From Candidatus Dojkabacteria bacterium (GTDB taxonomy: Bacteria > Patescibacteriota > Dojkabacteria > JAFGLO01), in assembly GCA_035371485.1 (NCBI GenBank), contig DAOOWV010000003.1:1-53449 (forward strand): 53,449 bases of DNA, read 5' to 3'. Every line of letters begins with the position of its first letter. Position 1 is the first letter of the stretch. The notes beneath the pieces are model-generated. The model searched no databases. It was not told the DNA's origin and worked only from the letters and a program-made list of their open reading frames with translations. Both the position numbers and the translations under genes were made by a program. Positions 16,495-34,018 of the stretch are shown piece after piece.

Positions 16495-16941
16495 TTAACT
16501 CGCTTTCTTGGCTTCCTCAATAAACATATCAATATCATGTATAAAAGCATTTACTACCTCTTCCCAAATGGCATCAGCCATATCTTCCATATTCATACCT
16601 GTTTTCTTTTCCATCAAAGCAGATAGAAGTTCTGCACTCTGCAAAGGCTCTAATTCGACAAATGCTTTTGAAACTTTATCTAGCTCTTCATCTGTGAATT
16701 TTTTAACGACTTCACTCATTAAGTAAAGATTTGCAAGAGCCATAGCTTGTTTTACAACTTCTTCATGCAATTCTTTTGTCACACCTTTTTCAACTAATTT
16801 GGCAATTAGTTTATCAGTAACTGTTTGTTGTTGTGCCAATCCACTTTGTTGAAATACTTGAACAAAAGCATTCTGTTCTTCTTCTGTCATAGCTACTCCA
16901 ATTTGTTGTTGAAGTGCTTGATTTACTTGATTTAAATCCAT
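16495..16941 (-). CDS. hypothetical acidic helical protein (member of the island small-protein family)
   Basis: 148 aa, Glu/Asp/Gln-rich. Carries FTDEELDKVSKAFVEL, a motif shared with four other small ORFs. Lies directly downstream of the 1003-aa ORF. Confidence 0.6.
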   Translation of the reverse strand: MDLNQVNQALQQQIGVAMTEEEQNAFVQVFQQSGLAQQQTVTDKLIAKLVEKGVTKELHEEVVKQAMALANLYLMSEVVKKFTDEELDKVSKAFVELEPLQSAELLSALMEKKTGMNMEDMADAIWEEVVNAFIHDIDMFIEEAKKAS

Positions 16942-16969
16942 ATATTTGGGCAGTTAAATTAAATTCTAC

Positions 16970-19900
16970 TTATTTTGGTTGAGCGACGACAGGCATCGCA
17001 TTTTCTAAAATATTTCTACCAAACCAAATTCCACCTGGATTCAATTTAGCCTTAGCTACTATTTCCGCTAAATTCATACCTTTGTTGGCTTCTAAAAGAT
17101 ATTCAATACCTTTATCACCTAACGTAGCCCTCCAAAGGTTTGGATCACCACTTACAAACATTTTTACAAGTTTATCCCCAATTCCGATACCATCATAAAC
17201 TTTTGCAGATGAATCTCCCATCATAATTCTTTCAAGCGCTTGTGCAACGGATGATCCTGGAGCTAAACTTAAAGCCTCACCACCAACAAATCTTACCAAT
17301 TCTCCGTTCCGTTCAACTTCAATTTTTAAAACCCTATCAGCCATTGACACATCCATAGTCTCAACTTGCCCAGTTTTATCAATTAATTTTCCATCTTCCA
17401 CCAATGCATCTTTTCCAGACTGCCACCTTGAAATCAAACTATCTGTACCTGTTAAACGCATACCCATAGCCATAACTGAAGAACCAAAGATCAAACCAGT
17501 AGTAATTGATGAGATATAAGCTTGAGTATTATCTCCTGCTAGTCTCTTTAATCTTTCAGCATATTTAGCTCGCTCATCTTCAGGTAAACCACCACCAGCA
17601 ATTTTATCCAAAATTCTTTTAATTTCACCTTTTTCTCTCACAGTAGTAATAGCTTCTACAGCTTTTCCACCTGGAATTGCAACCAAAGGAATAATTCCTG
17701 CAGCTACTGGTCCAAAAACGAATGATGCAGCTGCACCTACAGTAGTACCAATTGCCAAGCCCAATAATCTTCTTGTTCTCTCTTTAATTTCTTCAGCAAA
17801 CCTATCAGCACCTTCTCTATCACCTTTGAATTTTGCAACCTGGTGACCTACTAAAGCTCTTGCCCAGTCTATTCCTTCCCCAGCCATAGCAACTCCTCCT
17901 CTTAATAAATTCCAGGCTGCATATAATCCCATACCAATAGCAATTATATTTCCCGCAGTTCCACCAATAGCACCTAAAGCTAATATGACTGCAACACCTC
18001 TTAAAACCCTTCCAACACCATTAAATGAACCTTTAAAGAAATCTTTTAGTACATTTCTCTCTTTCTTATTAACAACCCTCATTGCTACTTCAGGACTAAG
18101 TCCAAGATCCAAGCAAAGCTCAATTGCTTTCTGATCTTTTACACTTTCCATACGCTTTAATGTTGGAGCCAACTCACCTTTGGCTTCCCTTTCTGTAAGG
18201 AAATAATTACCTGGTAATACGCTTAAATCATTATACATCGCAGGATTTTCCGCAATAATTTGTTCAACTAATGCGTTTAATACATCTCTATCGTTCATCA
18301 AATCATGTGCAACTATATTGTAAACTCTTGCATTTAATGGAGTAACTTTAGTGGAATCTACATCTATCTTTCCACCTTTAATCGTTAATACATTTTTTAA
18401 TTCACTCAACATATATGCGTCAATATATAACTCATAGGCTTGTGCAGTATCAACAGCCAATAAGTCAAAGTAAGGCTTGTTAACAATGGCAACTTCTTGC
18501 TTAAAATGCTGATCACCAGCATTAAATAAACCAGGAATGGTAGCCTTTATACTATCAACCTCAGTTTGAACAAATCCTAATTCGAGAAGAATAGTGTTAA
18601 AGTCTTTTCCCTTTAATTCATTAAACTTTTGCAAATAAGCTTTTGAATCAATACTTGTCCTAAAATTACCACCTGCTTCTCTCATAGCCCACAATTCCAT
18701 TATCAAAGCAAGGTTCTCCCTATTCTTACCATCACTTAATTTGTCAACTAAAGCTTCTTTAGAAAATATAGGAGGAACAGCAACTTTATCAAGAATTGCT
18801 AAGGAAACAGCCCTTCCAGTTGAAGGATCAATGACCGAATGAACGTTACTCAACTCAGTATTTATCAAAGTTCTTGCACTAGCAACATCTCTAACTTTTT
18901 TCCCGGTTGCATCATAACATACGGGACCATAACCTAAAATATCATAAACCACTCCTCTTCTTACTTCTTCACGATTAGATGGAATCCCTAAGTTATCAAC
19001 TTTATGTTCAGTAATTGGATGGGTTAAATTGTCCCTGTTTTTTACAATAGCCTTTACAACTGGATCAGCTTTAAGTTTTTGCCCAATCTCTGTTAGTCTT
19101 GCATCTCTACCGGGATCAGCAATAGCCCCAGCAAAATCAATAGAATTCAATAAACTTCCATTTCTTTTATCTACTTCATTAAGAGTTCTTTGACCATCTT
19201 TTCTTAATTCAGTTCTTAATTTGTGTCCATGATAGTCTTCTAAAGCTTTTTTCCCGGCTTCTTCTCGCAATGTTTCTAATGCATATTTCCAAGATTCTTT
19301 TTGACTTGGATCAATATGTGGCGAACTCAATTTCTCTGCTACCTCAAGGTATTGCTCATTTGTTAAAGGTACTATTTTATTAGCTTCTGTTTTTTTAGCA
19401 TTAATTTGATCTGGAGATACAGGCATGCCAGCTACAATTCTTTGTGCAATACGATTATTCATAAATGCTACCCTTGCTTGATCAACAGCTGGTTGATTTG
19501 CAGGATCAGCAGCATTAGGAATCCTCGCAACAGCGTCAGCTTGGAATGTCGCAACTACAGTAGAATTACTTGGATCTGCACTCCAAGTGTCAATATCCGT
19601 TTGTGGAATCCCCTTCATAAGTTCTTGTCTAACAAGCAGTTTGGCAACCTTTTCAACAACTCCAGGTCTTACTTTTTTTATATCTTCAGGTTTTAACATT
19701 CTGCTTTCGCCAGTTACGGGAGTAGCTCTATCAACAAATTTTCCCACAACAGGAATTTTTCCAGCAACATCTGTAACCTTATCTCCTACTCTAGCAACTT
19801 TGTCATCAACCGTACCTCGCCAATCATCTACTTTTCCTCCACTTCCGAAAGCATCTCCAACTCTTTCAGCAAATCTTTGGATGGCCCTAAATGGTGCCTT

Positions 19901-19981
19901 TATTGCATCTACAACTTTTTCTGCTCCCATTTTTATTCTGTCTCCAATGGGAGGATTTACACCAGGATTCATAAGTGTCAT
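16970..19981 (-). CDS. hypothetical large membrane-associated protein (1003 aa)
   Basis: Uninterrupted 3-kb ORF. N-terminal GDKV/GKxV repeats (VDDKVARVGDKVTDVAGKIPVVGKFVDR). Gly/Ala-rich TM block (GVAVILALGAIGGTAGNIIAIGMGLYAAW; LLGLAIGTTVGAAASFVFGPVAAGIIPLVAIPGG; TGLIFGSSVMAMGM). No catalytic motif recognised. Confidence 0.7.
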   Translation of the reverse strand: MTLMNPGVNPPIGDRIKMGAEKVVDAIKAPFRAIQRFAERVGDAFGSGGKVDDWRGTVDDKVARVGDKVTDVAGKIPVVGKFVDRATPVTGESRMLKPEDIKKVRPGVVEKVAKLLVRQELMKGIPQTDIDTWSADPSNSTVVATFQADAVARIPNAADPANQPAVDQARVAFMNNRIAQRIVAGMPVSPDQINAKKTEANKIVPLTNEQYLEVAEKLSSPHIDPSQKESWKYALETLREEAGKKALEDYHGHKLRTELRKDGQRTLNEVDKRNGSLLNSIDFAGAIADPGRDARLTEIGQKLKADPVVKAIVKNRDNLTHPITEHKVDNLGIPSNREEVRRGVVYDILGYGPVCYDATGKKVRDVASARTLINTELSNVHSVIDPSTGRAVSLAILDKVAVPPIFSKEALVDKLSDGKNRENLALIMELWAMREAGGNFRTSIDSKAYLQKFNELKGKDFNTILLELGFVQTEVDSIKATIPGLFNAGDQHFKQEVAIVNKPYFDLLAVDTAQAYELYIDAYMLSELKNVLTIKGGKIDVDSTKVTPLNARVYNIVAHDLMNDRDVLNALVEQIIAENPAMYNDLSVLPGNYFLTEREAKGELAPTLKRMESVKDQKAIELCLDLGLSPEVAMRVVNKKERNVLKDFFKGSFNGVGRVLRGVAVILALGAIGGTAGNIIAIGMGLYAAWNLLRGGVAMAGEGIDWARALVGHQVAKFKGDREGADRFAEEIKERTRRLLGLAIGTTVGAAASFVFGPVAAGIIPLVAIPGGKAVEAITTVREKGEIKRILDKIAGGGLPEDERAKYAERLKRLAGDNTQAYISSITTGLIFGSSVMAMGMRLTGTDSLISRWQSGKDALVEDGKLIDKTGQVETMDVSMADRVLKIEVERNGELVRFVGGEALSLAPGSSVAQALERIMMGDSSAKVYDGIGIGDKLVKMFVSGDPNLWRATLGDKGIEYLLEANKGMNLAEIVAKAKLNPGGIWFGRNILENAMPVVAQPK

Positions 19982-20102
19982 ATTAGTATTTTAAAATTTT
20001 AATTAATTATCAAAATAACAAAGAAAAGTCTCACTCAAGAGACTCCTCTTTGATATTTTATGGTACCTTATCGATTTTACCGAAAGTTAACCAGGTAATA
20101 GA

Positions 20103-20423
20103 CTATCCATTAACTTCCTTTATACCTTTAAACAAACCATCCATAATTATTTTCCCAAGATCAATCATTTCATTCTTTTTTTTATCTGAAAGAATAGTCG
20201 AACTCCTTATTTCTGATACATACTCGTCGTATATTGTCTGAAGTTTCTTAAGTAACTCTATACGCAAAGAAACATCGACTTCATTATACTCATTTAAAAA
20301 CTGTGTATAAACTATCAATGATTCTTCAGGAAGTCCAGACGCAATATCAAGCGCCAGTAATTTTTGTTCACTGGTAAAAAGCAACGAATCATCTAAGGCT
20401 TTTAAAAAGGCAGTTTTGCTCAT
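20103..20423 (-). CDS. hypothetical small acidic helical protein (island family)
   Basis: 106 aa. LLFTSEQKLLALDIASGLPEES aligns with the same region of 22305..22646 and 29582..29905. Lies 20 nt downstream of the 372-aa ORF. Confidence 0.65.
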   Translation of the reverse strand: MSKTAFLKALDDSLLFTSEQKLLALDIASGLPEESLIVYTQFLNEYNEVDVSLRIELLKKLQTIYDEYVSEIRSSTILSDKKKNEMIDLGKIIMDGLFKGIKEVNG

Positions 20424-20443
20424 AAAAAATAATTTAATTTAAT

Positions 20444-21562
20444 TTACAAGTTTTTTCCGCTCACGTTACTTGGTGGAACTTTTGCTTTATTTGCTGATTC
20501 TTGCTTAGCGTTAGCTTTTTTTAACGCTTCTTCTAAGAAACTTTTAACCATAGCCATAGCAGCAGAGTTATCAACATATTCTTCAAATCTTTGCAACTTA
20601 GCTCCTCCAGGTTTTTGAATCATAATCTCCCACAAAGGACCAAGCATTAGATTAAACATACGCGCTCCTGGAACAAAGTTTAATGCTAATTCGGCAATTT
20701 GCATTGCCACTGGTTCCATCTGGTCCCCTGTCCATTCTTCATAAAGCCTCTTTCTCGCATCAATTATAAACTTATCTACAACCACATCCGTAACTCCAAG
20801 TCCCGTTAAATCTGGAGTAATCACATCAACACCCACAGTTACCAATGCCAACGTTACTAAAGCCAACATTCTCTCAATTCTTTGTGCACTACTAATTGGT
20901 TTCATTTTATGAGATTCTCTATAAGCATTATCCTCAGCAACACTTGCCCTATGTTGTTCACCAATTCTTCCTAACCATTTAGCAAAAACACCTTTTCTCT
21001 TATCTCTTGCAATATCAGCATATTTATCCAAAGTGCCTTGAACTCTTTGTGAAAATTTCTGAAATATACGATCAGCTTCTATTTCTTCAACCGCTTCTTT
21101 TTCTTGAGGCGCAACTGCTTCCTTTCCCTTGAAACCTTTTAAAATTCCTTTTGCTAAACTGAAAACAATTCCAGCTACAGCAATAACTTTACCAAAGCCA
21201 GTGAATCTTCTTTTTTCATCTTTTTCACACTCAACACCTTCAGTACCATCTTCTTTAGCATGCGGTGCTCCTTGTGTTGTGGAATCACCAGCTTCAGCAT
21301 CCGTTGCTCCTTGTGTTGAGAAATCACCAGATTCTAATGTTCCAGACGTTGCAGCAACTACATCCGGACCTGGTGTTGCTTGTGCTTCAGTTCCATTTGC
21401 TTCCGCACCTATTTCTTCTGCTGGTACCCTGGTAACACTTGGTACTTCAGGGAATTCTGCTACTGGCGCTTGAGCTACATCGGCTACTGCGTCTGGTAAT
21501 CGTGTTGGACCGGTTCCTGATACACCTGAATTTACCCCCGTAGAACCTTGTTCTAGTGCCAT
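20444..21562 (-). CDS. hypothetical protein, disordered N-terminus plus hydrophobic segments (372 aa)
   Basis: The first ~120 aa are Ala/Pro/Gly/Thr/Glu-rich with a 13-aa tandem repeat. Hydrophobic segments: FGKVIAVAGIVFSLAKGIL and MLALVTLALVTVGVDVI. Locally high G+C. Confidence 0.65.
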   Translation of the reverse strand: MALEQGSTGVNSGVSGTGPTRLPDAVADVAQAPVAEFPEVPSVTRVPAEEIGAEANGTEAQATPGPDVVAATSGTLESGDFSTQGATDAEAGDSTTQGAPHAKEDGTEGVECEKDEKRRFTGFGKVIAVAGIVFSLAKGILKGFKGKEAVAPQEKEAVEEIEADRIFQKFSQRVQGTLDKYADIARDKRKGVFAKWLGRIGEQHRASVAEDNAYRESHKMKPISSAQRIERMLALVTLALVTVGVDVITPDLTGLGVTDVVVDKFIIDARKRLYEEWTGDQMEPVAMQIAELALNFVPGARMFNLMLGPLWEIMIQKPGGAKLQRFEEYVDNSAAMAMVKSFLEEALKKANAKQESANKAKVPPSNVSGKNL

Positions 21563-21702: not shown

Positions 21703-21758
21703 AAGCTAACAAACGAATGAACAAGTGAACAAGTTAACAAGAGCACGAGTGAAAAAGC
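21703..21758. repeat. degenerate octamer array, 7 units
   Basis: AAGCTAAC AAACGAAT GAACAAGT GAACAAGT TAACAAGA GCACGAGT GAAAAAGC. GAACAAGT is the reverse complement of the ACTTGTTC unit at 1178-1249. Confidence 0.75.
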
Positions 21759-21816: not shown

Positions 21817-22185
21817 ATGAAACCGAGTATTCTAAAAACAAAATCTCAAGAATTTGGGTCTCTAGCAATCGATTTCTATAAATTTTTAAATTCACAAAAA
21901 CTATATGAAATTGCAAAACAGTTTTTAAAAAGTGCTACAAGTATTGGCGCAAACATATCAGAATCAAAATATGCTGAAAGTAAAAAAGATTTCATTCACA
22001 AGTTACATATAGCATTAAAAGAAGCAGTTGAGACAGAATACTGGATTGAGTTGCTGAAAAATGAATCTAAAACATATAAAAACTTCTCAATACTTGAGAA
22101 TGAAAATAAAGTTTTGATTTTTATTCTAACAAAGTCAATAAGAACTGCAAAACAAAATGAGCAAATTAACAAACGAACAGACTAA
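21817..22185 (+). CDS. four-helix-bundle protein (Avd-like family), copy 3, on the opposite strand inside the island's minus arm
   Basis: FLKSATSIGANISESKYAESKKDFIHKLHIALKEAVETEYWIELL. The C-terminal codons (KQNEQINKRTD) run into an octamer array. Confidence 0.8.
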   Translation: MKPSILKTKSQEFGSLAIDFYKFLNSQKLYEIAKQFLKSATSIGANISESKYAESKKDFIHKLHIALKEAVETEYWIELLKNESKTYKNFSILENENKVLIFILTKSIRTAKQNEQINKRTD

Positions 22186-22670: not shown

Positions 22671-23972
22671 CTACGGCGTACTTGCTGCTTTAATTCCTTT
22701 TCCAACAGCACCAGCTCCAATGTCAAACATGTCACCTAAAAATCCAAATTTTGAGGACAGAAATCTATTGAGCCATTCATTAAAAGGTTTCAATAAATGC
22801 CCATGTGGTAATCTTTCATTTAGTCTACTAAATGCTGTAAGCCCACTTGGAGATATAATTTCTCTCAAACCATCAGGTGCAAAAATAGTCAATATTCCCG
22901 ATAATAATGACGCTCCCTTCCTTGAATATCCTCCTGTCTTGAATCTATCAGAATGAATAAACATTTCAGCATCTTCTCGAGAATATCCCTTTTCCATCAA
23001 AGCAACAATTACTTCATGTTCTCTTTTTAAGGCATAAGCTTTATCCACAGACTTTGATATCAAAAACTTATCACTGAGTTTATCAGTCACATATTTGACT
23101 ATGGTTTCTGTAAATTTATCATCTAGATCCAAACCTAAAAATCCCAATGCTTTTTTATCTTTCAAAAAATCAAGAAGAGGTTTTCCAGTTACCCAGTCTA
23201 AGCCCCAAGAGTAGATTAATACTCCTAAATCAAATAATGCATCTATAGCTACCTTTTTCTCACTTTCACCTGGCTCCACATTAAAGAACCATCTTCTCGC
23301 ATTTTCAAGTTTACCCCTTGCAATCCTTTCCTGTTTTTTGGCCACCTCCTTATTAAAATCCTCTAAATCTACATTCATTCCTTCCAAAAACAAAATTTTT
23401 AATGCCTTTTCCATTCCTACTTTTTCAGCAAGACTTAGTAATTCTTGTGTTCTGGGATCTAATAATGAATCTAAAGTCTGCACCTCGTCCTGTGGTATTC
23501 CAGAACTATCACCTGACTCTTCATCCTCCGTTAACGGAATAACTAGCGAATGGGATGCAATAGCAATTACTTCGTCAGGAGTGGGATGCTCTGGCTTCGT
23601 TAATGATTCTGGTGTGTCAACTTCAGATTGAGCCTGTTGTGCCAATTGTTGCTCCATCCTATGATGCTGAAATGAGATACCTGCAATGAGTTGAAATGCT
23701 TCCGTAGCAGTCATTTGTTCAATAAGTCTCCAAGCCATTGGATGAATCTCTGGAAAATCTCTTTTCCAAGCTTCAATCATCTCAGGAGTAATTTCGGCTC
23801 TTGTAGCTCCATCTCTACTCTTAACTGCTGGCTGAAATGGTTCTACTGGTGAAGGGACAGGAGCATCAATAGAAGCAGGAAGATTGCCAGTTACAACTGG
23901 AGAAGGTATTGGTGATTCTGTACTCCTTGGAATGTCATTACCTACCCCAAAAGATGGTCTATTAAAACCCAT
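22671..23972 (-). CDS. hypothetical protein, Pro/Ser-rich N-terminus and Gly-rich C-terminal tail (433 aa)
   Basis: SPIPSPVVTGNLPASIDAPVPSPVEPFQP, then an acidic linker (EDEESGDSSGIPQDE). C-terminus is FGFLGDMFDIGAGAVGKGIKAASTP. No family recognised. Confidence 0.65.
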   Translation of the reverse strand: MGFNRPSFGVGNDIPRSTESPIPSPVVTGNLPASIDAPVPSPVEPFQPAVKSRDGATRAEITPEMIEAWKRDFPEIHPMAWRLIEQMTATEAFQLIAGISFQHHRMEQQLAQQAQSEVDTPESLTKPEHPTPDEVIAIASHSLVIPLTEDEESGDSSGIPQDEVQTLDSLLDPRTQELLSLAEKVGMEKALKILFLEGMNVDLEDFNKEVAKKQERIARGKLENARRWFFNVEPGESEKKVAIDALFDLGVLIYSWGLDWVTGKPLLDFLKDKKALGFLGLDLDDKFTETIVKYVTDKLSDKFLISKSVDKAYALKREHEVIVALMEKGYSREDAEMFIHSDRFKTGGYSRKGASLLSGILTIFAPDGLREIISPSGLTAFSRLNERLPHGHLLKPFNEWLNRFLSSKFGFLGDMFDIGAGAVGKGIKAASTP

Positions 23973-24039: not shown

Positions 24040-24909
24040 TTAGTTCGCATATCGTACCTCATTACTAAGCCCAGTCAATCTTGCAGCACGTTTATATATC
24101 TCAAGCTTTCTTCGTACTATCTTTTGCATTGCCAACTTTTCTGGATCCCTACCATGATACGACAAAATTTCCAAATATATTTTTATCCTCTCTGCATGCG
24201 CAGGTGCACAGATAATTGCAGGACATTTACCTTCTTCGGCTAAGGTTAATAACGCTTCAGCCTGCAGAAGTCTTCTTGCATCATTTGGTGACATTCTCTC
24301 CAATAATTCTCTATTTGTAACATTGTGCCCATGTCCGGTATATTCATTCCAACGATCAAACCAAAATTTAAATTTAGATTTCGGAACATCTATACCCCAA
24401 AGTCCCATTACTTCAACAAAGGGAACAACTGGGTTAGCTGCAAAAAGAACTTCTAAAACTTCGTATACAACTTTATTTGCGATATCAGCTGAAGCTATTC
24501 TTTTCCCTAATTCAGAAGCAACTTTAGTGCAGTGTCCAAAAAAATCATATATATATGCTTTACTATATTGTTCAGCCCCTAATTTATTAAAATTTTCAAC
24601 CTCTTCTGGAAGATAACTTATCAAAACGTCAGTTACACCTGGCTGACCAATAAATGAACTAAGAAGTTCTTTCCAATTTAAGGGGGCTACTCCTTTTATT
24701 TCAGACCTTCCATTTACATCATTAGAAGTATTATGTTCAATGCCACAAACATAAACCTTTCTACCTCCAGAAATCTCAACTGCGACACTTGTTCCCTTAT
24801 CAATTGGAAACGTTGAGGCATATTTCTTATCCAAATCAACAACAACCGCGTCAGTATGTTTTTCAGGCACAAATACTCTTGGAAAAGTCGTTTCTCCGCC
24901 AAATCCCAT
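24040..24909 (-). CDS. hypothetical soluble protein (289 aa)
   Basis: Long ORF in operon position. No TM segment or catalytic motif recognised. Starts MGFGGE, as the 433-aa ORF starts MGFNRP. Confidence 0.6.
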   Translation of the reverse strand: MGFGGETTFPRVFVPEKHTDAVVVDLDKKYASTFPIDKGTSVAVEISGGRKVYVCGIEHNTSNDVNGRSEIKGVAPLNWKELLSSFIGQPGVTDVLISYLPEEVENFNKLGAEQYSKAYIYDFFGHCTKVASELGKRIASADIANKVVYEVLEVLFAANPVVPFVEVMGLWGIDVPKSKFKFWFDRWNEYTGHGHNVTNRELLERMSPNDARRLLQAEALLTLAEEGKCPAIICAPAHAERIKIYLEILSYHGRDPEKLAMQKIVRRKLEIYKRAARLTGLSNEVRYAN

Positions 24910-26371: not shown

Positions 26372-28765
26372 ATGGAAACAGAAATCCTAACAACAGCAAT
26401 AACTGTACTTTCAATATCACTTTCCGTCACTTTTTTAGTCTTTTTTATACTCGCAACCATCCGTTTTATCTCAAGACAAAAAATTAAAAACAATCGTAAA
26501 AATTTAAAACTTCTTAAAGTAACATTGCCTAGATATCCAAGACCCCTTGATTCCTTAACAGAAAAAGTCCAAAAAGAACAAATAAATGAACAATCTGCCG
26601 AACAAATGTTTTCTGAACTTCGTGGAATTGTACCTGATGATTTGAGAAGATTCTTCAGATATGGGGAGACTATATCTATGGAAATCGTAGCAACAGCCGA
26701 AAGCATTTCTTTTTTTATTTACTGTTCACCTGAATTCAAAGATTCACTTAAACGAACAATATATGGTACACATCCTGAAGCAGAAATAGTGGAAGTAAAC
26801 GACTATTTTGACGAGTTTACAAAAGATCCCTTTGTTTATGGATACATAAGACTTGCAGGACCAGCATATGCCCCAATTCGAACTTATGAAACATTAGGTG
26901 GTGACACACTAAATACTTTATTAGCTAAACTCACAGATCTACACGGAAAAGAGAAAATTGCCATTCAATTTTACAGTACTCCTGTAGGCGATTCATGGAG
27001 ATCAAGTGCCCATTCTGCATTGAGAACAGCAACACAAACTGCCGGAGATATTAATAATACAGTATTATCCGGAGGACAAGATAGATCAATAATCGATAAT
27101 GAACTATATTCCGGAATTGAGAAGAAGATGTCAAAAAAAGGATTTCTAACTGGTATAAGAATAATTTCTGTAGCCGAAAATAAACAGACTGCAACGACAA
27201 ATTTACAAAGTGTGGGTAAGGTTTTTGCACAATATGAACTTCCTCCTATGACACAATTTGAAACAACAATGTACAAAATTAATACTTTTAATTTCCTTCG
27301 TGACTTTAAATTAAGAATAAAACCATTTTTTGATCTACCAATATATAGACAACAATTTATAACCAATACAGCCGAACTTGCTACCTTATTTCACCTCCCA
27401 AGTGTAGAAGTGCGAATTCCTAAGTTAGAATGGCAGAGATACAAAAAAGAGCCTGCTCCAGCCGATATCCCTCAAGAAGGGTTATTTTTGGGATACAATA
27501 CCTATAGGGGTGAACGTAAAAAAATATTTATAAAAGAAGATGACAGACGAAGACATTTCTACATAATAGGACAAACCGGTGTTGGTAAATCAGAATATAT
27601 GAAACAGATGTTCTTACAGGATGTATATTCTGGAAAAGGATGTTGTTTCATTGATCCACATGGAGATGTCGCCGAAGATATACTCTTTAAAATCCCAGGA
27701 CATCGCAAAAATGATGTTGTGTATTGGGATCCGGGAGATACACAATACCCTATGGGTCTAAACATAATGGATGTTGAAGGTGATGAAGCCAAAAATATAA
27801 TAATAAACTCATTCATTGATTTACTTTACAAACTATATGACCCAAATAGAGTTGGAATGATGGGACCAATGCTTGAGAGAACAATAAGAAATGTAATGCT
27901 TACCGCAATGGAGGAGCCCGGATCGACATTGATTGAGGCATTAAGACTGATTACAAACCCAGAATATGCCAAAACGAAAATACCAAATATAAAAGATCCA
28001 ATTGTAAAAACCTACTGGACAGAGCAGATGGCACAAACAACCGACTTTCATAGATCTGAAGCATTAGGATATTACGTTTCAAAATTTGATCGTTCTATAA
28101 CAGATAAAACAATAAGAAATATAATTGGGCAATCGAAATCAAGTTTCAATTTTAGACAGATAATGGATGAACAAAAAATATTGATAGTTAATCTTTCAAA
28201 GGGTTCTCTTGGAATTGAAAACATGACATTTCTGGGAATGGTTCTTATCCCAAGGATATTAGTTTCAGCAATGAGTAGAGCAAATATACCCGAACCAGAA
28301 AGAAAAGATTTTTATCTATATGTCGACGAGTTCCAAAATTTCACTACTAATGATTTTGTATCTATATTGTCTGAGGCAAGAAAATATAGATTATCACTTG
28401 TAATGGGAAACCAATATATCAGTCAAATCAGAGAAGATATTAGAAATGCAATATTCGGTAACGTAGGGACATTGGGTGCTTTCAGAGTAGGAATTGATGA
28501 TGCAAAATATTTAGCCCCATTTTATCATCCAATTGTTAATGAATTTGATTTGTCTAATAATGCAATTGGTAATATGTATATAAAATTACTCGTTGAGGGA
28601 AGACCAAGTGAAGCATTTACTGTAGCCTACGATTGGAATGAAATACAAGCTATCCCAAGAAACGAACAGATTGCAAATGATATTATTGCAAGAACAAGAA
28701 GAGATATCGCAAAGGAAAAATCATTAGTTGAGCAAGAGATCGTTACAAGAGCAAACCTTATTTAA
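26372..28765 (+). CDS. TraD/TraG/VirD4-like type IV coupling ATPase (FtsK/HerA superfamily) with long N-terminal domain
   Basis: N-terminal TM helix ITVLSISLSVTFLVFFILATIRFI. Walker A GQTGVGKS followed by CCFIDPHGD (compare TrwB GATGTGKS...VDPNGD). Walker B FYLYVDEFQNF, then RKYRLSLVMGNQYISQI. About 380 aa precede the P-loop. Confidence 0.7.
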   Translation: METEILTTAITVLSISLSVTFLVFFILATIRFISRQKIKNNRKNLKLLKVTLPRYPRPLDSLTEKVQKEQINEQSAEQMFSELRGIVPDDLRRFFRYGETISMEIVATAESISFFIYCSPEFKDSLKRTIYGTHPEAEIVEVNDYFDEFTKDPFVYGYIRLAGPAYAPIRTYETLGGDTLNTLLAKLTDLHGKEKIAIQFYSTPVGDSWRSSAHSALRTATQTAGDINNTVLSGGQDRSIIDNELYSGIEKKMSKKGFLTGIRIISVAENKQTATTNLQSVGKVFAQYELPPMTQFETTMYKINTFNFLRDFKLRIKPFFDLPIYRQQFITNTAELATLFHLPSVEVRIPKLEWQRYKKEPAPADIPQEGLFLGYNTYRGERKKIFIKEDDRRRHFYIIGQTGVGKSEYMKQMFLQDVYSGKGCCFIDPHGDVAEDILFKIPGHRKNDVVYWDPGDTQYPMGLNIMDVEGDEAKNIIINSFIDLLYKLYDPNRVGMMGPMLERTIRNVMLTAMEEPGSTLIEALRLITNPEYAKTKIPNIKDPIVKTYWTEQMAQTTDFHRSEALGYYVSKFDRSITDKTIRNIIGQSKSSFNFRQIMDEQKILIVNLSKGSLGIENMTFLGMVLIPRILVSAMSRANIPEPERKDFYLYVDEFQNFTTNDFVSILSEARKYRLSLVMGNQYISQIREDIRNAIFGNVGTLGAFRVGIDDAKYLAPFYHPIVNEFDLSNNAIGNMYIKLLVEGRPSEAFTVAYDWNEIQAIPRNEQIANDIIARTRRDIAKEKSLVEQEIVTRANLI

Positions 28766-28925: not shown

Positions 28926-29531
28926 ATGAATCTTGGAGAATTTGGACGAAAAATAGAAAGCGGTGCAAGTAATGCTTGGGAATTTGCAAAAAAAGTCCCA
29001 GGTAATGTCGCAGAGGCCGTAAAAGAAGTTCCTGAAAAGGCACTGGAATTATGGCATAATCTAGGTGACAAAATTGAGAGATTAGGTAATTCAACTGCGG
29101 TCGAACACATTAAAGACACTGGAGAAACAGCTGGAAGAATATTGGGAGTTATTGTTGATGAAGGTAAGAAAAACTTTACTAATGAAGGTCTTGCAAAACT
29201 TGTTCCAGCTGCAGCAGTTTTATCAAGAGTTGCAAGAGGTACCTTAGGAGTAAGAAATGGTGGATTGATAGACAGAGGAGTTGGTGCATTAGAAACTGGA
29301 TTGGCTATAGCCGCAAACTGGAAAGAACACAAAGCAATCGCCTTGGCAACGTTAGTTACTGCATTTACTCCAAGAATATTCAGATTTGGAATAAGAGCCA
29401 TCGATGTTGCAGCTACCTTAAGAGCTATAAAGGATATGAACAGATTTATAGGTGGAGTTTCTGAAAGAAAAGACGAATTTAAAGCACCTGGTACAGCCCC
29501 AGCCGTAGAGGTTTCACCACCAGAAGCATAG
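28926..29531 (+). CDS. hypothetical protein (201 aa), amphipathic N-terminus and Gly/Ala-rich hydrophobic core
   Basis: Plus-strand ORF chosen over the antisense 28889..29557 ORF because of operon context and composition. GASNAWEFAKKV resembles GAANAWFSERL at the C-terminus of 25646..26292. Confidence 0.55.
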   Translation: MNLGEFGRKIESGASNAWEFAKKVPGNVAEAVKEVPEKALELWHNLGDKIERLGNSTAVEHIKDTGETAGRILGVIVDEGKKNFTNEGLAKLVPAAAVLSRVARGTLGVRNGGLIDRGVGALETGLAIAANWKEHKAIALATLVTAFTPRIFRFGIRAIDVAATLRAIKDMNRFIGGVSERKDEFKAPGTAPAVEVSPPEA

Positions 29532-29581: not shown

Positions 29582-29905
29582 ATGACCAGTAGAGAACAGT
29601 TCATTAAAACCGTACTGTCAACTACCCTCTTTACTGACGAAGAGAAAGTAAAGATTGTTGACGCAGTAGATTCTTTAAGTGAAGAAGCTCGTGCAAAAAT
29701 TGTTGAAGAAATTGAAGGTTATAATGCACGAACAAAAGAAAGAGTAGCAAAGTACAACACCGCAGTTAAAGAAGAATTTGCAAAATATAGAGAAGAACTT
29801 AAAAATATACCTGAGATTGCTGAAAAAGATATTGATATTGCAAACGCCACTTCTCAAGTATTAGAAGATGCAATAACTAAGGCAACTAGTGACTTAGTTT
29901 CCTAA
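29582..29905 (+). CDS. hypothetical small acidic helical protein (island family)
   Basis: 107 aa. TLFTDEEKVKIVDAVDSLSEEARAK aligns with 20103..20423 and 22305..22646. Confidence 0.65.
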   Translation: MTSREQFIKTVLSTTLFTDEEKVKIVDAVDSLSEEARAKIVEEIEGYNARTKERVAKYNTAVKEEFAKYREELKNIPEIAEKDIDIANATSQVLEDAITKATSDLVS

Positions 29906-29914: not shown

Positions 29915-30742
29915 ATGACACTGCTAAAGCCGGAAACACTTGAGGACACTGATAGCGAATCTGGACAAACATTTTCTTTTGCACAAGAAACTAACTCTCC
30001 AGCCAGAACTAAACCTCAAAAAACTGAAGATGATATACCTCCTTTACCTGAGTTAGGTGCCGAGACTCTAAAAAATGTTTCAGAAATTCAAGAAGATCTT
30101 ATAGTTGAAGATGCTCAAGACAAACAAGAGACAAAGAAAGGTATTCTTACACATTTAGACACTATGATTAGAGGCCGTAAGTTGACTTTAGATAGAGCAA
30201 TTCTCGATTTAATGATTGCCTTAAGCATCGGAACTGCTGGAGCTATTGGAGACAATGTCGCCCTATTTGATAAGGTTCCATGGCTTGGTATTGTTCTAGA
30301 ATTCGTGAGTGATCAGGGGCTTAAATGGGTAGCCAATGAGTTTGACGAGAAAGTTAGAGATTTAGTTTCAAAGGTTGCAAATAAAGATTATAGAACTAAC
30401 AAACCTTTTATCGGTGGAACCGCAAATTTGGTTTCGGAGGGAATTGGGCTTGGAACTAAGGCACTAGTCGCGCTTGGGTTTATACCTGCTGGAGCTATTG
30501 GAGATTTTGTAAACCCTGCAACTGTACAAGCAGTTCTTGAATTTGGAAAATATACGCCAATTATAGGAGCAGTTGTTGAAAGGGGAGTTAATACTTCAGA
30601 TAAACTTATTGGTAGAGTTACAGGTCTAATTGGTGAAATTTTTGGCAAAGTTGAAGAAGAAAAACCTGGATTCAGTTTTGATAATTTTTCTAAATGGTGG
30701 GATCAAAAATTGCAAGAAGGCGTGGTTTTTAGTCCAGTATAA
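29915..30742 (+). CDS. hypothetical protein, acidic disordered N-terminus and Gly-rich hydrophobic C-terminal half (275 aa)
   Basis: N-terminal ~75 aa are Glu/Asp/Thr/Pro-rich. Then LDLMIALSIGTAGAIGDNV and GIGLGTKALVALGFIPAGAIGDFV. Starts MTLLKP, as the 1003-aa ORF starts MTLMNP. Confidence 0.65.
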   Translation: MTLLKPETLEDTDSESGQTFSFAQETNSPARTKPQKTEDDIPPLPELGAETLKNVSEIQEDLIVEDAQDKQETKKGILTHLDTMIRGRKLTLDRAILDLMIALSIGTAGAIGDNVALFDKVPWLGIVLEFVSDQGLKWVANEFDEKVRDLVSKVANKDYRTNKPFIGGTANLVSEGIGLGTKALVALGFIPAGAIGDFVNPATVQAVLEFGKYTPIIGAVVERGVNTSDKLIGRVTGLIGEIFGKVEEEKPGFSFDNFSKWWDQKLQEGVVFSPV

Positions 30743-30759
30743 GTTTAAATTTCAGAATT

Positions 30760-31044
30760 ATGGAAAGACCTGATCCTTTTGAGACAAGACCTCCAAGGGG
30801 TGGACTTAAACTCACATTTGAATCAGATAAAAAAGAAAAACCTGCAGAAGTTGAGTATATCCAACATCCTATTTCAAGAGAGGCGTATGAAGCCCAAAGT
30901 CCTGAGAATCAAATATTAAAAAGATACATTGAGATAGATGGAGGTAAAGTTCCCATAGAATTGATGACTGGTACTAGAAAAAACCAAGCGGTGAAGAAGA
31001 AGGTTATTTTTTTATGGGAGTCAAGTTTGAAGATGGTGCCGTAG
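30760..31044 (+). CDS. hypothetical protein (94 aa), 0-frame product upstream of a U_UUU_UUA heptamer
   Basis: ATG-30760. Contains RYIEIDGGKVPIE. The frame ends at TAG 31042-31044 and overlaps the next ORF by 31 nt. Confidence 0.5.
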   Translation: MERPDPFETRPPRGGLKLTFESDKKEKPAEVEYIQHPISREAYEAQSPENQILKRYIEIDGGKVPIELMTGTRKNQAVKKKVIFLWESSLKMVP

Positions 31045-31571
31045 GCACGATTGAAAATGGAACCAAAGATAGGAATGGGAATTTAATATTAGCCACACCA
31101 TCAAATAGTAAAGTAGAAGGTGTTGGCCCAGATCCAGACAGTACTCCTTTCACTATTAGAGAACCAATAATAGAAGAAAATACAGTGGATTATGTTGAAA
31201 TAGATGGACAAAAATATAGGGTTCAAGAAAGACAGGTCCCCAACAACACTCAACCTGTTCCTGGTATTCCTGATAGCCTAAGTCTCACCAAGAGCGAACG
31301 TTATATAGTTACAAAAGACGGACAAGAATTAATAGTTAGAAATAATTTGGAATATAAAGAGGTTTCAAACGGCCCATTTATAAGTGATGCCCCAGAAAAA
31401 AAAGGATTAGTACCTATTTCTGTTCCTGGAGTATTTGATGAAAAAGGTAATTTTCATCCAATCAAAAAAGGCTACTATGATGAAGAAAGAGGGTTACAAC
31501 CTACAAGAAAACAAATACTCGAAGATTTAAAACTAGGAACAGAATTTAAGCTACCAAAATATTCCAAGTAA
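31014..31571 (+). CDS. hypothetical protein (185 aa) in the -1 frame of the preceding ORF
   Basis: ATG-31014 immediately follows the T7 run 31007-31013, with a purine-rich GAAGAAGAAGG upstream. Contains DYVEIDGQKYRVQE, echoing RYIEIDGGKVPIE in the upstream ORF. Confidence 0.55.
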   Translation: MGVKFEDGAVGTIENGTKDRNGNLILATPSNSKVEGVGPDPDSTPFTIREPIIEENTVDYVEIDGQKYRVQERQVPNNTQPVPGIPDSLSLTKSERYIVTKDGQELIVRNNLEYKEVSNGPFISDAPEKKGLVPISVPGVFDEKGNFHPIKKGYYDEERGLQPTRKQILEDLKLGTEFKLPKYSK

Positions 31572-31627
31572 TATCTGTTGATAATTCCTTTTTCCCCTAA
31601 ACCTCCCCAATAACTATTCCACAAATG

Positions 31628-31795
31628 TTATTGAGTAACTTCGATTGTTGAAACACCTGATTTTACAATCTCACCGATTTTATTAACAATCGCTCTTGAA
31701 GGATCAACATTACTGGTACTTGGAGCATCCAAATGTCCACAAATTATAGCATTTTTTGATATTTTACCTGTGGAAATTAAATGTTTAATCAACAT
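31628..31795 (-). CDS. C-terminal fragment of an Amidase_2-type N-acetylmuramoyl-L-alanine amidase, in frame with 31799..32362 across a TGA
   Basis: MLIKHLISTGKISKNAIICGHLDAPSTSNVDPS fits the second half of the amidase_2 fold (I.GH.d....DP). It is the same reading frame as the upstream ORF, separated only by TGA 31799-31801 and one Ala codon. Confidence 0.55.
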   Translation of the reverse strand: MLIKHLISTGKISKNAIICGHLDAPSTSNVDPSRAIVNKIGEIVKSGVSTIEVTQ

Positions 31796-31798
31796 TGC

Positions 31799-32362
31799 TC
31801 ATATCTTAACTTGTTGTTCATTGATCGTAGAACCATCTGTAGCATCAGGATATCCATTTTCATTTGTGTCAACATAAGTTCCAGAGATTTCAATTGAAAC
31901 TGTCTTTGCACTATTCCATTCAACGTTTGAAGCAACACTATCTACATTTAAGGTGGCATATCCAGGTTCTACAAATTGATACACAACGTTATCCTTGTGA
32001 ACCAAATAGTTAGTACAAGCATAATCCTCTGAATACAAAAATCTATTTACAACTGGATCTAGAGACTCTGCGGTAGTCCAATGAAGCACCACCCTTTCAG
32101 CTGGCTCTTCTGAATGCCAATATTTATTTACATCAGAAGCCTCCACACCGCCATTAGGAAAATAAGTTCCAATCATCCAGTTTCTATACGCTGTACGTGG
32201 AGATTCTTCATCCTTAAACCATTGCGTCATATCATATTTTTTAGAAATTTCAAGGTTATCTTCTCCTACTTCAAATAATTCTTGGACCATTTCTTCAAGA
32301 GTATCTCGTACCCCAACAGTTCCTTTTAGCCACTCATTACTATCACTATTTATCCTTTTCAC
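31799..32362 (-). CDS. N-terminal part of an Amidase_2-type peptidoglycan amidase, ending at an in-frame TGA
   Basis: RVVLHWTTAES...CTNYLVHKDNVVYQFVEPGYAT fits the amidase_2 pattern (ivlHhTa....hyli..dG.iyq.v). GTG start at 32362. The domain is truncated by the TGA. Confidence 0.55.
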   Translation of the reverse strand: MKRINSDSNEWLKGTVGVRDTLEEMVQELFEVGEDNLEISKKYDMTQWFKDEESPRTAYRNWMIGTYFPNGGVEASDVNKYWHSEEPAERVVLHWTTAESLDPVVNRFLYSEDYACTNYLVHKDNVVYQFVEPGYATLNVDSVASNVEWNSAKTVSIEISGTYVDTNENGYPDATDGSTINEQQVKI

Positions 32363-32373
32363 CTCTGAAACTT

Positions 32374-32976
32374 CTATATCGCTACTCCCGGAAAAAATGA
32401 ATTTTTACGGCCTTTCATTAGCAACAATGCCACGTTAGGTGGAATTGGTATATGTGAATACTCTTGAGCTACCCTCACAATTTCATCACTTTTTATATTT
32501 TTACTAAAATCAAACAATATTTCTACAATAGCCTTATCATCGTAACCTTTAGCATGAAGCTCACGAGCAATATGCGGATAATCTAATTGAGCTCTAAACA
32601 GATCCCAATAAAGCTGTATTTGTTTTCCTTTTGATTCTCCATATACTTTCTCCAAGTCCTCATACGTATCGACAACGTTACGTCCGCCATTATACATCGC
32701 AGCCACTCGAATCAGAACGATTGGATGATTTGGATATTTATCAATAAAATCATCTCCATACGACTCACGAACCAATTTACGTGCCTGATTTAGACAATCC
32801 TCCATAACGTCAAGCACATATGGCAAATTATTTTCAAACTTGCTTAAATTTGCAACAAGATTGGAATCTTTATTTGCCAAAACATAATACCACTTTAATA
32901 ATCCCTCAACATTTAGCCATTGACGAGGAGTTGGGTTATTCTCGGAAACAATCCATACTCTTGAATCAAGACTCAA
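32374..32976 (-). CDS. hypothetical protein with an SLT-like C-terminal motif (IRVAAMYNGGRNVV)
   Basis: TTG start in the track. The frame is open 18 codons further upstream (KYNSAARWFLADARYLST) to TAA 33031-33033, with no start codon there. AAMYNGG resembles the aaYNaG motif of lytic transglycosylases. Confidence 0.45.
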   Translation of the reverse strand: MSLDSRVWIVSENNPTPRQWLNVEGLLKWYYVLANKDSNLVANLSKFENNLPYVLDVMEDCLNQARKLVRESYGDDFIDKYPNHPIVLIRVAAMYNGGRNVVDTYEDLEKVYGESKGKQIQLYWDLFRAQLDYPHIARELHAKGYDDKAIVEILFDFSKNIKSDEIVRVAQEYSHIPIPPNVALLLMKGRKNSFFPGVAI

Positions 32977-33050
32977 AGTAGAAAGATATCTGGCATCAGC
33001 TAAGAACCATCGGGCTGCACTATTGTATTTTTACTTGAAGCAGGCAATAA

Positions 33051-33584
33051 CTACATCAGTTTAATAAGTGCATTGCCCCTATTAAAAGCACTCTGTTCAC
33101 TATTGTCATTTAATAACATATTTAATTCATTCTGCTCTGAATTATTCCCCAATTTAATAAAATCACCAGTCGAAACATTAAAAGGCATAACTTGCCATGG
33201 CCCACATGCTCCACTGTTATTGGATTTTATTGGAATCAAACCACTTTCAGGCATACCAATTGACATAACAAAATCTATAGGAATTCCACGACTGTTTAAT
33301 TGATCTACTACTGATTCAGTCATCCTTGATCTTACCCATGGACTAAAAGCAACAGGAACATACTTATTAGCTTCAGAAACATCATTTGAATAATATGACC
33401 TCCCAACATTTTTTAATGCATCATAACCTTCATACCCATAATTAAATGGAACATCTAAAGTCAAACCGTTGGAAACTGCTAATACTTCATCTAAACTTAC
33501 TTCCTTTTTGGTTTCTACAAACGGCTCTTCTTCAACAACTTCTGGACTTTCATCACTTGGCCCATCTTCACCTTCTTCAATCAT
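33051..33584 (-). CDS. lytic transglycosylase (SLT domain)-like protein with acidic N-terminus
   Basis: SIGMPESGLIPIKSNNSGACGPWQVMPFN matches the SLT catalytic region (ES...S.aGA.GlmQvmP). The N-terminal ~30 aa are acidic. No signal peptide is visible. Confidence 0.6.
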   Translation of the reverse strand: MIEEGEDGPSDESPEVVEEEPFVETKKEVSLDEVLAVSNGLTLDVPFNYGYEGYDALKNVGRSYYSNDVSEANKYVPVAFSPWVRSRMTESVVDQLNSRGIPIDFVMSIGMPESGLIPIKSNNSGACGPWQVMPFNVSTGDFIKLGNNSEQNELNMLLNDNSEQSAFNRGNALIKLM

Positions 33585-33667
33585 TTTGTCATCTTTTGTT
33601 CCACCAAGTCGAGTTAAATCATCAGAAAGAGGTTCTTTGGAAACTGGAGTAACCCCATCCTCTGGAA

Positions 33668-34018
33668 TTAGTTTACTTCCTTTTCTATTGAACTTTGCTT
33701 TCCTGTTGCCATTACTGGTTTTTCAGTAGTAACAGGAATATCTTTCTTTATTAAATTTTTAGATTTTGGAGGAAAAATTTTATCCCACAATCCACGTAAC
33801 TTTGGAGGTTCAGGTAATTTTGAAAGATTATCTCTTACTTTCCCATATACACCAGCTACCATACTTCCACTGTTTTTAACTACCTCTCCAAACTTTGCAA
33901 TATTCTCAGCTCCCACTTTTATAACCTTGGTTGCCTTGGGTAAAGATAAATCTTTAAATATACTCGATACTACCCCTAATCCTTTTTTAAACACTTCAAC
34001 TGGAAATGGCATATTCAT
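33668..34018 (-). CDS. hypothetical basic protein (116 aa), first gene of the hydrolase operon
   Basis: Lys/Gly/Val-rich amphipathic sequence (KVIKVGAENIAKFGEVVKNSG), similar in flavour to the N-termini of the 1003-aa and 201-aa ORFs. Confidence 0.5.
   Translation of the reverse strand: MNMPFPVEVFKKGLGVVSSIFKDLSLPKATKVIKVGAENIAKFGEVVKNSGSMVAGVYGKVRDNLSKLPEPPKLRGLWDKIFPPKSKNLIKKDIPVTTEKPVMATGKQSSIEKEVN

Follow-up and report, generated by a model that had tools for sequence, protein, structure and literature searches.

What does a motor of the type IV coupling protein (T4CP) kind do when it is encoded on a chromosome among genes that mostly match no protein family? The question is raised by contig DAOOWV010000003.1 of a Candidatus Dojkabacteria bacterium (assembly GCA_035371485.1), whose 53,449 nucleotides constitute the window analyzed here. 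Within this window, an island at positions 16,495 to 34,018 carries a membrane-anchored ATPase of 797 amino acids (aa) together with a set of small acidic proteins and larger glycine-rich proteins. Patescibacteria depend on host bacteria, and the exchange of material with these hosts is largely obscure. The initial annotation, made from the sequence alone, described the island as a candidate secretion or cell-contact system centred on the ATPase. Our analysis treats such a novel ATPase-centred secretion system as a hypothesis with partial comparative support. Newly recognized at this locus are a family of small proteins and its recurrent adjacency to ATPases carrying the DUF8128 domain; we found no literature description of the family or of the adjacency, and a full-text search for DUF8128 returned nothing.

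The island is organized as two arms that diverge between a 183-aa open reading frame (ORF) and the start of the ATPase gene at position 26372. The minus arm encodes, in order, proteins of 183, 113, 289, 433 and 113 aa, then, after a plus-strand gene of the 23S_rRNA_IVP family, proteins of 372, 106, 1003 and 148 aa. The plus arm encodes proteins of 797, 201, 107, 275 and 94/185 aa, and a convergent block on the minus strand (116, 177, 200, 187 and 55 aa) closes the region. All coordinates and strands of the initial ORF map agree with the ORFs that we found, and so does its statement that few of the genes can be recognized: Pfam names 4 of the 20 island ORFs (the ATPase and the 122-, 187- and 177-aa ORFs), and the remaining 16 have no match in Pfam, NCBIfam, PHROGs or PADLOC, as had been estimated. 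The flanks consist of ordinary housekeeping genes, nearly all with clear Pfam matches.

The ATPase (26372..28765, plus strand) was characterized with Pfam, NCBIfam, the precomputed DUF8128 family (PF26449), an AlphaFold2 (AF2) model and Foldseek. We assign it to the VirD4/VirB4 ATPase superfamily and regard its motor as T4CP-like; it is atypical in having one transmembrane (TM) helix and a DUF8128 domain. Its Pfam matches are weak (TrwB_AAD_bind 2.5e-5, TraG-D_C 3.8e-5 and DUF87 1.5e-4). NCBIfam returns SXT_TraD at 1.9e-9 and a CD1115 VirD4-like family at 2.5e-6, with VirB4_plasma reaching merely 0.004 over the Walker A region, and the profile matches in PDB are TrwB and DotL, the latter being the best PDB sequence match. 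No match to CagE_TrbE_VirB (PF03135) was obtained on the ATPase at E values up to 1. These sequence signals favour a T4CP over a VirB4. The PADLOC defence models match the protein only as a generic HerA or mads-type ATPase.

The AF2 model, computed from 70 sequences, is confident, with a pLDDT of 86.8. Behind a long N-terminal TM helix it has two domains: residues 46-340 form the alpha/beta DUF8128 domain, and residues 370-797 form the P-loop domain, which contains a helical insert (~471-600). The single TM helix lies at residues 9-27 (Kyte-Doolittle hydropathy 2.5) and is followed by a basic stretch, so that by the positive-inside rule the bulk of the protein is predicted to be cytoplasmic. 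In Foldseek, the model superposes on TrwB, the T4CP of R388, with a target-normalized TM-score (TMt) of 0.60-0.66 and an E value of ~1e-12. Full-length VirB4/TrwK proteins reach a best E value of 8e-16 but superpose poorly (TM-score 0.25-0.33), and HerA and Cag-beta come next.

The ATPase is like the VirD4, TrwB and DotL coupling proteins in its FtsK/HerA-superfamily P-loop motor of TrwB fold, in its Pfam and NCBIfam signals and in its N-terminal membrane anchor. Unlike the usual T4CPs, it has one TM helix instead of two and an extra DUF8128 domain of ~300 residues between anchor and motor, which gives it a VirB4-like two-domain length and architecture. The likeness to VirB4 (TrwK of R388) extends to the size of ~800 aa, the succession of an N-terminal domain and a C-terminal ATPase and a locus near dnaA. 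It differs from VirB4 in the poor superposition, the missing CagE_TrbE_VirB match, the T4CP-type signals and the lack of recognizable VirB3-, VirB6- or VirB8-like neighbours in the island.

More than 3,200 homologues of the ATPase were found, essentially all of them in Patescibacteria, the candidate phyla radiation (CPR), and the full-length ones among those listed carry DUF8128; more than 600 species-representative genomes encode the protein. In being chromosomal and widespread across the phylum, it differs from T4CPs. A recent survey counted 5,713 T4CP homologues in 2,918 of 3,035 Patescibacteria genomes, of which just 148 are near virB4 (Quinonero-Coronel et al., 2025; PMC12102498). Like most of these, the window ATPase has neither virB4 nor a relaxase beside it. 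The T4CP gene is non-essential in S. epibionticum, the one genetic model, and the authors suggest its possible exaptation (PMC12102498); this species' type IV secretion system (T4SS) cluster was described without a recognizable coupling protein (PMC10633639). The survey, which analyzed the neighbourhoods of virB4 and not those of T4CPs, does not contain the gene arrangement reported here. For one sub-clade, our locus gives the orphan ATPase its first candidate partners, namely a recurring family of small proteins and diverging, apparently Sec-independent, Gly-rich proteins. The role of an orphan T4CP thereby becomes testable through interaction, localization and co-expression.

The founding member of the small family is the 107-aa acidic protein (29582..29905, plus strand). 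Two paralogues lie in the minus arm, one of 106 aa (20103..20423, minus strand) and one of 113 aa (22305-22646, minus strand), hereafter 113a; the other 113-aa acidic protein of this arm (24937-25278, minus strand), hereafter 113b, is unrelated. As the initial annotation had it, the small ORFs are acidic, with isoelectric points of 4.4-4.7. The trait common to the family is an N-terminal domain of ~45 residues (MDKxxALxxLIExSxxLxxxxKxxLLxxVDxLxEE-like) in acidic proteins of 53-113 aa. The three ORFs are mutually related in phmmer at E values of 3e-6 to 5e-3 (106 to 107 aa, 2.7e-6; 113a to 107 aa, 6e-4; 113a to 106 aa, 3e-3), and jackhmmer joins them. An hhalign comparison gives 99.8-99.9% with a profile that already contains them. 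A hidden Markov model (HMM) of the domain finds exactly three members in the window, all in the island (107 aa, 6e-22; 106 aa, 4e-22; 113a, 7e-16), and has no other match there; these scores are partly circular because the HMM was seeded with the same three ORFs. Independent support for the family comes from phmmer among the three proteins and from hhalign between groups. We also considered 113b and the 148-aa acidic protein encoded by the last gene of the minus arm (16495..16941, minus strand) as members, which the domain HMM, and hhalign for 113b, did not support. A scan of metagenome contigs with the small family gave no matches.

Beyond the clade of the window, proteins of 53-71 aa with the shared N-terminal motif adjoin the orthologous ATPase at three comparison loci, designated L087 (two proteins), L089 (one) and L097 (two). 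These small proteins alternate with Gly/Ala-rich proteins of 185-234 aa and lie at most 6 kb, mostly at most 2 kb, from the ATPase. When the group of 106, 107 and 113a was compared with the 53-71-aa group, hhalign aligned residues 1-46 co-linearly with a probability of 77.6% (P 1.9e-5) and a score of 31.3; none of 60 column-shuffled nulls scored above 15.3. On this alignment, the two groups are probably homologous. Members of the family stand directly beside the ATPase, with gaps of 4-120 bp, at L081, L087 and L097; in all, they occur near the DUF8128 ATPase in the clade of the window and at L081, L087, L089 and L097, loci that were sampled through the ATPase. The neighbours of ~190 aa at L087 and L089 gave weak phmmer hints of kinship with the 275-, 201- and 183-aa families, which hhalign did not confirm.

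Closer relatives retain much more of the island. Three metagenomic loci whose ATPase is 91-93% identical to that of the window (L090, L092 and L093) keep the succession IVP-113a-433-289-113b-183 diverging from ATPase-201-107-275, and L092 and L093 retain the 372- and 106-aa genes as well. After this core comes a segment of variable gene content, followed by f251, LexA and MgsA in L090 and L092; L093 ends before these genes. Beside an ATPase at 91-93%, the identity of the neighbours to the window is very uneven and ranges from 25 to 84%. It is highest for the 107-aa protein (82-84%), followed by 113b (68%), 113a (61-71%) and the 275-aa (57-66%), 183-aa (56-58%) and 289-aa (55%) proteins, and it is lowest for the 372-aa (29-34%) and 433-aa (25-35%) proteins; the 201-aa protein reaches up to 68% and is undetectable by BLASTP in L090. 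The flanking genes stand at 86-89% (MgsA), 78-83% (LexA) and 60% (RsmE). The window is matched at 99.99-100% identity by the other contigs of this organism, so that a strain-level polymorphism test for diversifying selection is uninformative.

With increasing distance, the arrangement shrinks. At L081 (GCA_054922035.1), whose ATPase is 60% identical, only the ATPase followed by proteins of 106 and 298 aa is left, the latter two being ~30% identical to the 107- and 275-aa proteins. A trio of 193-, 108- and 256-aa proteins at L094 matches 201/107/275 on a contig too short to show an ATPase. At the sister-clade loci L081, L087, L088, L089, L096 and L097, the ATPase lies within tight same-strand runs of genes without Pfam match. 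The initial annotation had made its proposal depend on conserved co-occurrence in related genomes. This expectation is borne out in part: the core is kept where the ATPase is 91-93% identical, the order ATPase-107-275 where it is 60% identical and the small family where it is 53-56% identical, and none of this extends to the rest of the phylum.

We tentatively prefer, with somewhat less than even confidence, to read the island as a native, origin-proximal, fast-evolving accessory module restricted to its lineage, in which adaptor-like small proteins and signal-less Gly-rich proteins are served by an orphan coupling-type ATPase. In the sub-clade, larger proteins with disordered N-termini and Gly/Ala-rich amphipathic or hydrophobic segments alternate with small acidic proteins, three of which are paralogues of one family. 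A heuristic scan found no N-terminal signal-like hydrophobic segment in any of the 19 island proteins other than the ATPase, both hydrolase-like ORFs included. The small acidic proteins would act as adaptors or chaperones of the adjoining large partners, and the membrane ATPase would power the export or membrane insertion of these partners, perhaps also exporting the signal-less peptidoglycan-hydrolase-like proteins of the variable segment. It might do so alone or with a VirB4-type T4SS encoded elsewhere, and the likely purpose would lie in envelope or host-contact functions. The analysis establishes the order of the genes, their pattern of conservation, the fold of the ATPase and the small family with its recurrence beside the ATPase. 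It is adjacency that suggests a physical or functional coupling between the ATPase and its neighbours, and export and a part in host interaction are conjectured. In this sense, the island hints at an undescribed export or envelope module.

Several observations weigh against this interpretation. The association of the small family with the ATPase holds for loci that were, without exception, selected by way of the ATPase or the 275-aa protein. At the loci of 80 other species (GTDB; ATPase 36-55% identical), there is no homologue of any of the 19 neighbours, and the ATPase clearly does not need the gene set of the island. The small family is absent from these 80 loci and also from L088, L095 and L096, whose ATPases are 55-60% identical. 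In Microgenomates, the ATPase sits in the company of housekeeping or cell-division genes, flanked by NrdR, ribonucleotide reductase (RNR) and cobalamin adenosyltransferase genes on one side and, on the other, by DivIC, SpoIID and a XerC/D-like recombinase, the last at 34 loci. Within the window, a gap of 160 bp with a promoter-like site separates the ATPase from the next gene, so that the two may not be co-transcribed. The genes of the hydrolase operon are not conserved in L090 or L092, except for the N-terminus of the 116-aa protein. PDB and profile searches yielded neither remote homology nor structure for the neighbours.

The same observations bear on the reading that there is no functional link at all, and that a housekeeping ATPase, for example one for DNA translocation or related to division, happens to lie beside unrelated, lineage-specific, fast-evolving ORFans. 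The ATPase is phylum-wide and has unrelated neighbours elsewhere; its company in Microgenomates of XerC/D-like, DivIC, SpoIID and NrdR/RNR genes would suit such a function, and promoter-like sites separate the two arms of the island. In Microgenomates and allies, the ATPase moreover has a conserved partner of its own directly upstream on the same strand, a protein of ~110-150 aa (families F2 and F14, hhalign 95.7%) seen at L006, L008, L010, L012 and about 25 other loci. This partner has a Pro/Gln/Val-rich disordered N-terminus, a conserved C-terminal motif LPLTDDQIxxGL......S.RWLAEWCxRRLKQ and no Pfam match; we found no kinship between it and the window proteins, and the window has no F2/F14 counterpart. 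Against a chance neighbourhood stands the small family, which adjoins the ATPase at L081, L087 and L097 in lineages that otherwise differ in their neighbours. The order ATPase-small protein-275 also persists at 60% ATPase identity, and all members of the sub-clade that we examined have the ATPase embedded in tight runs of ORFans on the same strand. On balance, we consider the absence of any link unlikely, though it is the rival that we take most seriously. Since the ATPase is common across the phylum with other neighbours, the idea of an ATPase-centred system can be upheld for one sub-clade only. Should the neighbours turn out to have nothing to do with the ATPase, the island would still be a clear example of a fast-evolving block of ORFans close to the origin in CPR genomes. 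We also considered a role of the ATPase as a replacement for FtsK; transcriptome papers on the saccharibacterium TM7x reportedly mention an FtsK, given which this role is weakened and not needed.

Alternatively, the neighbours may not be substrates but structural components of an envelope channel or pilus, either a highly divergent T4SS-like one or one of another kind, with the ATPase as its motor. They would then correspond to VirB6-, VirB3-, VirB8- or VirB2-like membrane parts, the 1003-aa protein being of the 'extended VirB6' type and the small Gly/Ala-rich proteins being pilin-like. Consistent with this idea, ~4-5 hydrophobic segments form a cluster in the 1003-aa ORF, with large hydrophilic domains to either side; Gly/Ala-rich hydrophobic proteins are encoded by the 183-aa ORF and by several short neighbours at L089 and L097; and the best full-length Foldseek matches of the ATPase are VirB4 proteins. 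Genes like those of peptidoglycan hydrolases are nearby, and T4SS (virB4) loci of Patescibacteria are often proximal to dnaA/dnaN, with divergent pilin arrays split by non-pilin genes (PMC12102498). Yet the island ORFs have no match to VirB6-, VirB3- or VirB8-like parts in Pfam, NCBIfam or PDB sequences, and no Pfam match to VirB6/TrbL, VirB2/T4SS_pilin, VirB3 or VirB8 even at E values up to 1-10. One would expect structural parts to be kept together with the ATPase throughout the phylum, and they are absent in the 80 species; the 433- and 372-aa proteins fall to 25-35% identity beside an ATPase at 91-93%; and the signals of the ATPase itself favour a T4CP. We regard a divergent channel as rather unlikely. 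In the window, the place next to dnaA is taken by the T4CP-like cluster, and no virB4 was seen among the scanned ORFs.

The alternation of large, fast-evolving proteins with small acidic ones also brings to mind polymorphic-type toxin/effector-immunity cassettes, in which Gly-zipper membrane toxins and small cytoplasmic immunity proteins would be deployed against hosts or competitors, with or without participation of the ATPase. The Gly/Ala-rich hydrophobic segments of the large proteins, the variable adjacent segment and the lack of Sec signals are all compatible with this. However, the small proteins are the better conserved ones (61-84%) and have an N-terminal domain in common across cassettes. 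Cognate immunity proteins usually co-diversify with their toxins, and better-conserved small proteins with a common domain therefore fit adaptors or chaperones better. Moreover, no known toxin or immunity domain was found with Pfam, NCBIfam or PADLOC, and the core gene content is fixed among relatives and not shuffled. Toxin-immunity cassettes are thus an improbable explanation.

A coupling-type ATPase near peptidoglycan-hydrolase-like genes could finally be what is left of a decayed integrative conjugative element (ICE), an inserted plasmid or a prophage, and the ATPase family does have homologues in large Bacillus phages. The initial annotation had found the block visibly richer in G+C. The excess is real but slight (0.355 for the island genes against 0.330 for the flanks), and it fails as a sign of foreign DNA: it lies in codon positions 1 and 2, and G+C at third positions (GC3) is flank-like (0.234 against 0.219), so that it reflects the amino-acid composition of Gly/Ala/Glu-rich proteins. 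The statement that the window lacks VirB4, relaxase, integrase and an element replication initiator withstood our search, in which none was found among the scanned ORFs of at least 150 aa. We also found no flanking direct repeats of the att kind and no tRNA border at the island edges. The hallmarks of a Gram-positive conjugative T4SS or ICE (VirB4, relaxase, integrase or recombinase, att borders) were accordingly not found in the window, and neither was the VirB4-type T4SS and/or relaxase in the same element that accompanies a T4CP. In relatives, the core precedes the same right-flank genes f251-LexA-MgsA, its synteny is fixed in four genomes, and the ATPase occupies fixed chromosomal contexts across the phylum. 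Taken together, these results answer the suspicion of an ordinary ICE in the negative; they rule out a foreign island, ICE or prophage, and a remnant of such an element is highly improbable.

To return to the preferred reading of a native accessory module, its design resembles that of known adaptor or chaperone systems. Small acidic proteins and larger signal-less proteins near a membrane ATPase of the FtsK/HerA superfamily are also found in IcmS/IcmW-DotL (type IVB), VirE1-VirE2 and Lap/WXG100-LXG (type VIIb), and, as in adaptor/chaperone-substrate systems, conservation is higher in the small partner than in the large. The likeness is one of design only, as no sequence or structural homology was found. 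The small proteins have no Pfam match to WXG100 or LXG, and a T7SS_signal match on the 201-aa ORF is insignificant (E 0.078). A type VII system is defined by a multi-domain FtsK/SpoIIIE ATPase with WXG100 substrates, and the window ATPase has a single nucleotide-binding domain of T4CP type. A bolder version of the proposal would make the DUF8128 ATPase, in one branch of Patescibacteria, the motor of a hitherto undescribed VirB4-independent export route, in which small adaptors with their common N-terminal domain deliver fast-evolving, signal-less membrane-active proteins, and perhaps wall hydrolases, to the surface of the epibiont or into the host cell. We consider it distinctly unlikely; such a route, if real, would be a functional analogue of the type VII or T4CP-adaptor systems built from unrelated parts.

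The full-length architecture of the DUF8128 ATPase is not confined to Patescibacteria. Large Bacillus phages (phage G gp156, JL, 0305phi8-36 and YungSlug) encode full-length structural homologues, with a BFVD Foldseek E value of 5.6e-47 for phage G gp156, a query-normalized TM-score (TMq) of 0.70 for JL and a match to phrog_5156 at 4e-67. These proteins have the architecture in common with the window ATPase, at 20-24% identity and in a phage context. In phage G (L098, 89194-93336), the homologue adjoins a VirB4-like gene; in YungSlug (L099, 126444-129882), it adjoins a peptidoglycan metallopeptidase and small membrane proteins. The phage loci look like a phage-borne T4SS-like mini-module, and the architecture is thus found there beside T4SS-like and wall-degrading genes.

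Among the larger neighbours of the ATPase, the 275-aa protein (29915..30742, plus strand) is the best conserved. It has an acidic disordered N-terminus and Gly-rich hydrophobic segments, and its homologue at L081, 30% identical, directly follows the ATPase and the small protein. The family is narrow, with seven proteins in 5.8 billion and, in an exhaustive HMM search of 1.84 billion representatives, three 50%-identity clusters, the third being that of L094; an AF2 model from the seven-sequence alignment is unusable (pLDDT 33). A contig of 376 kb also carries the 275-aa protein. The first gene after the ATPase encodes the 201-aa Gly/Ala-rich basic protein (28926..29531, plus strand), with orthologues of 52-68% identity in L092 and L093 and one detected by profile only in L090; the 193-aa protein of L094 matches it at 8e-7. 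On the other side, the first gene of the minus arm encodes the small, hydrophobic, Gly/Ala-rich 183-aa protein (25646..26197, minus strand). Its start codon is TTG at 26197, and because the orthologues have 215-223 aa, the true start may lie further upstream.

The 289-aa protein (24040..24909, minus strand) is soluble and has two CxxxH motifs (C55/H59 and C234/H238) that, together with C127 and H193, are invariant across the 55%-identical orthologues. This pattern suggests that the protein is metal-binding or a Cys/His catalytic protein. The two fastest-evolving proteins are the 433-aa one (22671..23972, minus strand), with a Pro/Ser-rich N-terminus, and the 372-aa one (20444..21562, minus strand), with a low-complexity N-terminus and a 39-nt tandem repeat at 21253-21330. 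The compositional bias noted initially for the N-termini of the 372-, 433- and 275-aa proteins is evident, with P/E/T/A/S/G/Q/D making up 63-77% there against 47-50% in the rest of each protein, and the 1003-, 372-, 275- and 183-aa ORFs do carry the Gly/Ala-rich hydrophobic segments. Conversely, the paralogies proposed from short motifs (372/433/275, 183/201, 1003/275 and 433/289) found no support in BLASTP, in phmmer or in hhalign on orthologue alignments.

The 1003-aa protein (16970..19981, minus strand), in which the Gly/Ala-rich hydrophobic segments cluster at residues ~655-770, found no match in the libraries, among PDB sequences or in the metagenome-contig scan. PDB sequence and profile searches with the 1003-, 275-, 200-, 187- and 177-aa proteins and the small family likewise gave nothing meaningful. 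On an otherwise 99.99% identical contig from another assembly (JGI 3300010345; L083, 600-3601), a single indel splits the 1003-aa ORF into calls of 380 + 610 aa; the cause is either a frameshift at the level of strains or an error of assembly. A hairpin with a 14-bp stem and a T-run lies at 20019-20052 on the minus strand, between the 106- and 1003-aa genes, and may be an internal terminator or attenuator; the total count of terminator-like sites across the region is not above chance.

The four-helix-bundle gene of 122 aa within the minus arm (21817..22185, plus strand; 23S_rRNA_IVP, Pfam 2.7e-19) had been taken for an insert. It is not a recent insertion, because the gene occupies the same place in L090, L092 and L093 at 72-79% identity. 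L097 has an IVP gene too, fragment-sized and 4 kb away from the ATPase. The 23S_rRNA_IVP family includes the Avd proteins of diversity-generating retroelements (DGRs). The idea of a DGR was dropped, as the window has no template/variable repeat pair and no reverse transcriptase was found among the scanned ORFs, which did not include those at 34-45 kb.

The variable segment begins with the overlapping 94- and 185-aa ORFs (30760..31571, plus strand), of which just a portion of the 185-aa ORF is matched in L090 and L093, by relatives at 40-48% identity. It continues with the convergent operon (31628..34018, minus strand) that encodes proteins of 116, 177 (with an SLT-like motif), 200, 187 (Amidase_2-like) and 55 aa. 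The Amidase_2 match of the 187-aa ORF (3e-5, 24.8 bits) and the SLT match of the 177-aa ORF (0.012, 15.7 bits) stay under the curated cut-offs of 26 and 21.3 bits, so that both hydrolase calls are sub-threshold. At 32374-33584 on the minus strand, the 177-aa ORF has an N-terminal lytic-transglycosylase motif (ES...S..GACGPWQ) and the 200-aa ORF an AMYNGG motif. The two are in different frames with two stop codons between them, and together they may be a split or pseudogenized transglycosylase.

The left flank encodes, by Pfam, dnaN (118-1146), RecO, SBP, a pilin, EF-P, dnaE (9380-12835), Sua5, dnaA (14017-15396, minus strand) and a His-phosphatase. The island starts ~1 kb from dnaA, and the window is origin-proximal. 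On the right, a LexA-like gene is followed by MgsA-like, RsmE and iPGM genes (precomputed Pfam listing) and by a type IV pilus set of the PilB/PilT/PilC kind. The pilus set lies ~11 kb downstream of the island (45444-50302, plus strand) and comprises a PilB-like protein (T2SSE + MshEN), a second T2SSE ATPase and a PilC-like T2SSF protein; a prepilin with an N_methyl motif is encoded upstream of dnaE (7018-7599, minus strand), and 14-nt tandem repeats lie at 7608-7705. A dispersed repeat of heptamer-like units (AACAAGT/GAACAAG...) occurs at 1172-1216, 21712-21756, 22168-22198, 25615-25645 and 52110-52141. Its three copies in the island are intergenic, two of them bracketing the IVP gene (PF05635), and the copy at 52110-52141 lies within the SecA ORF.

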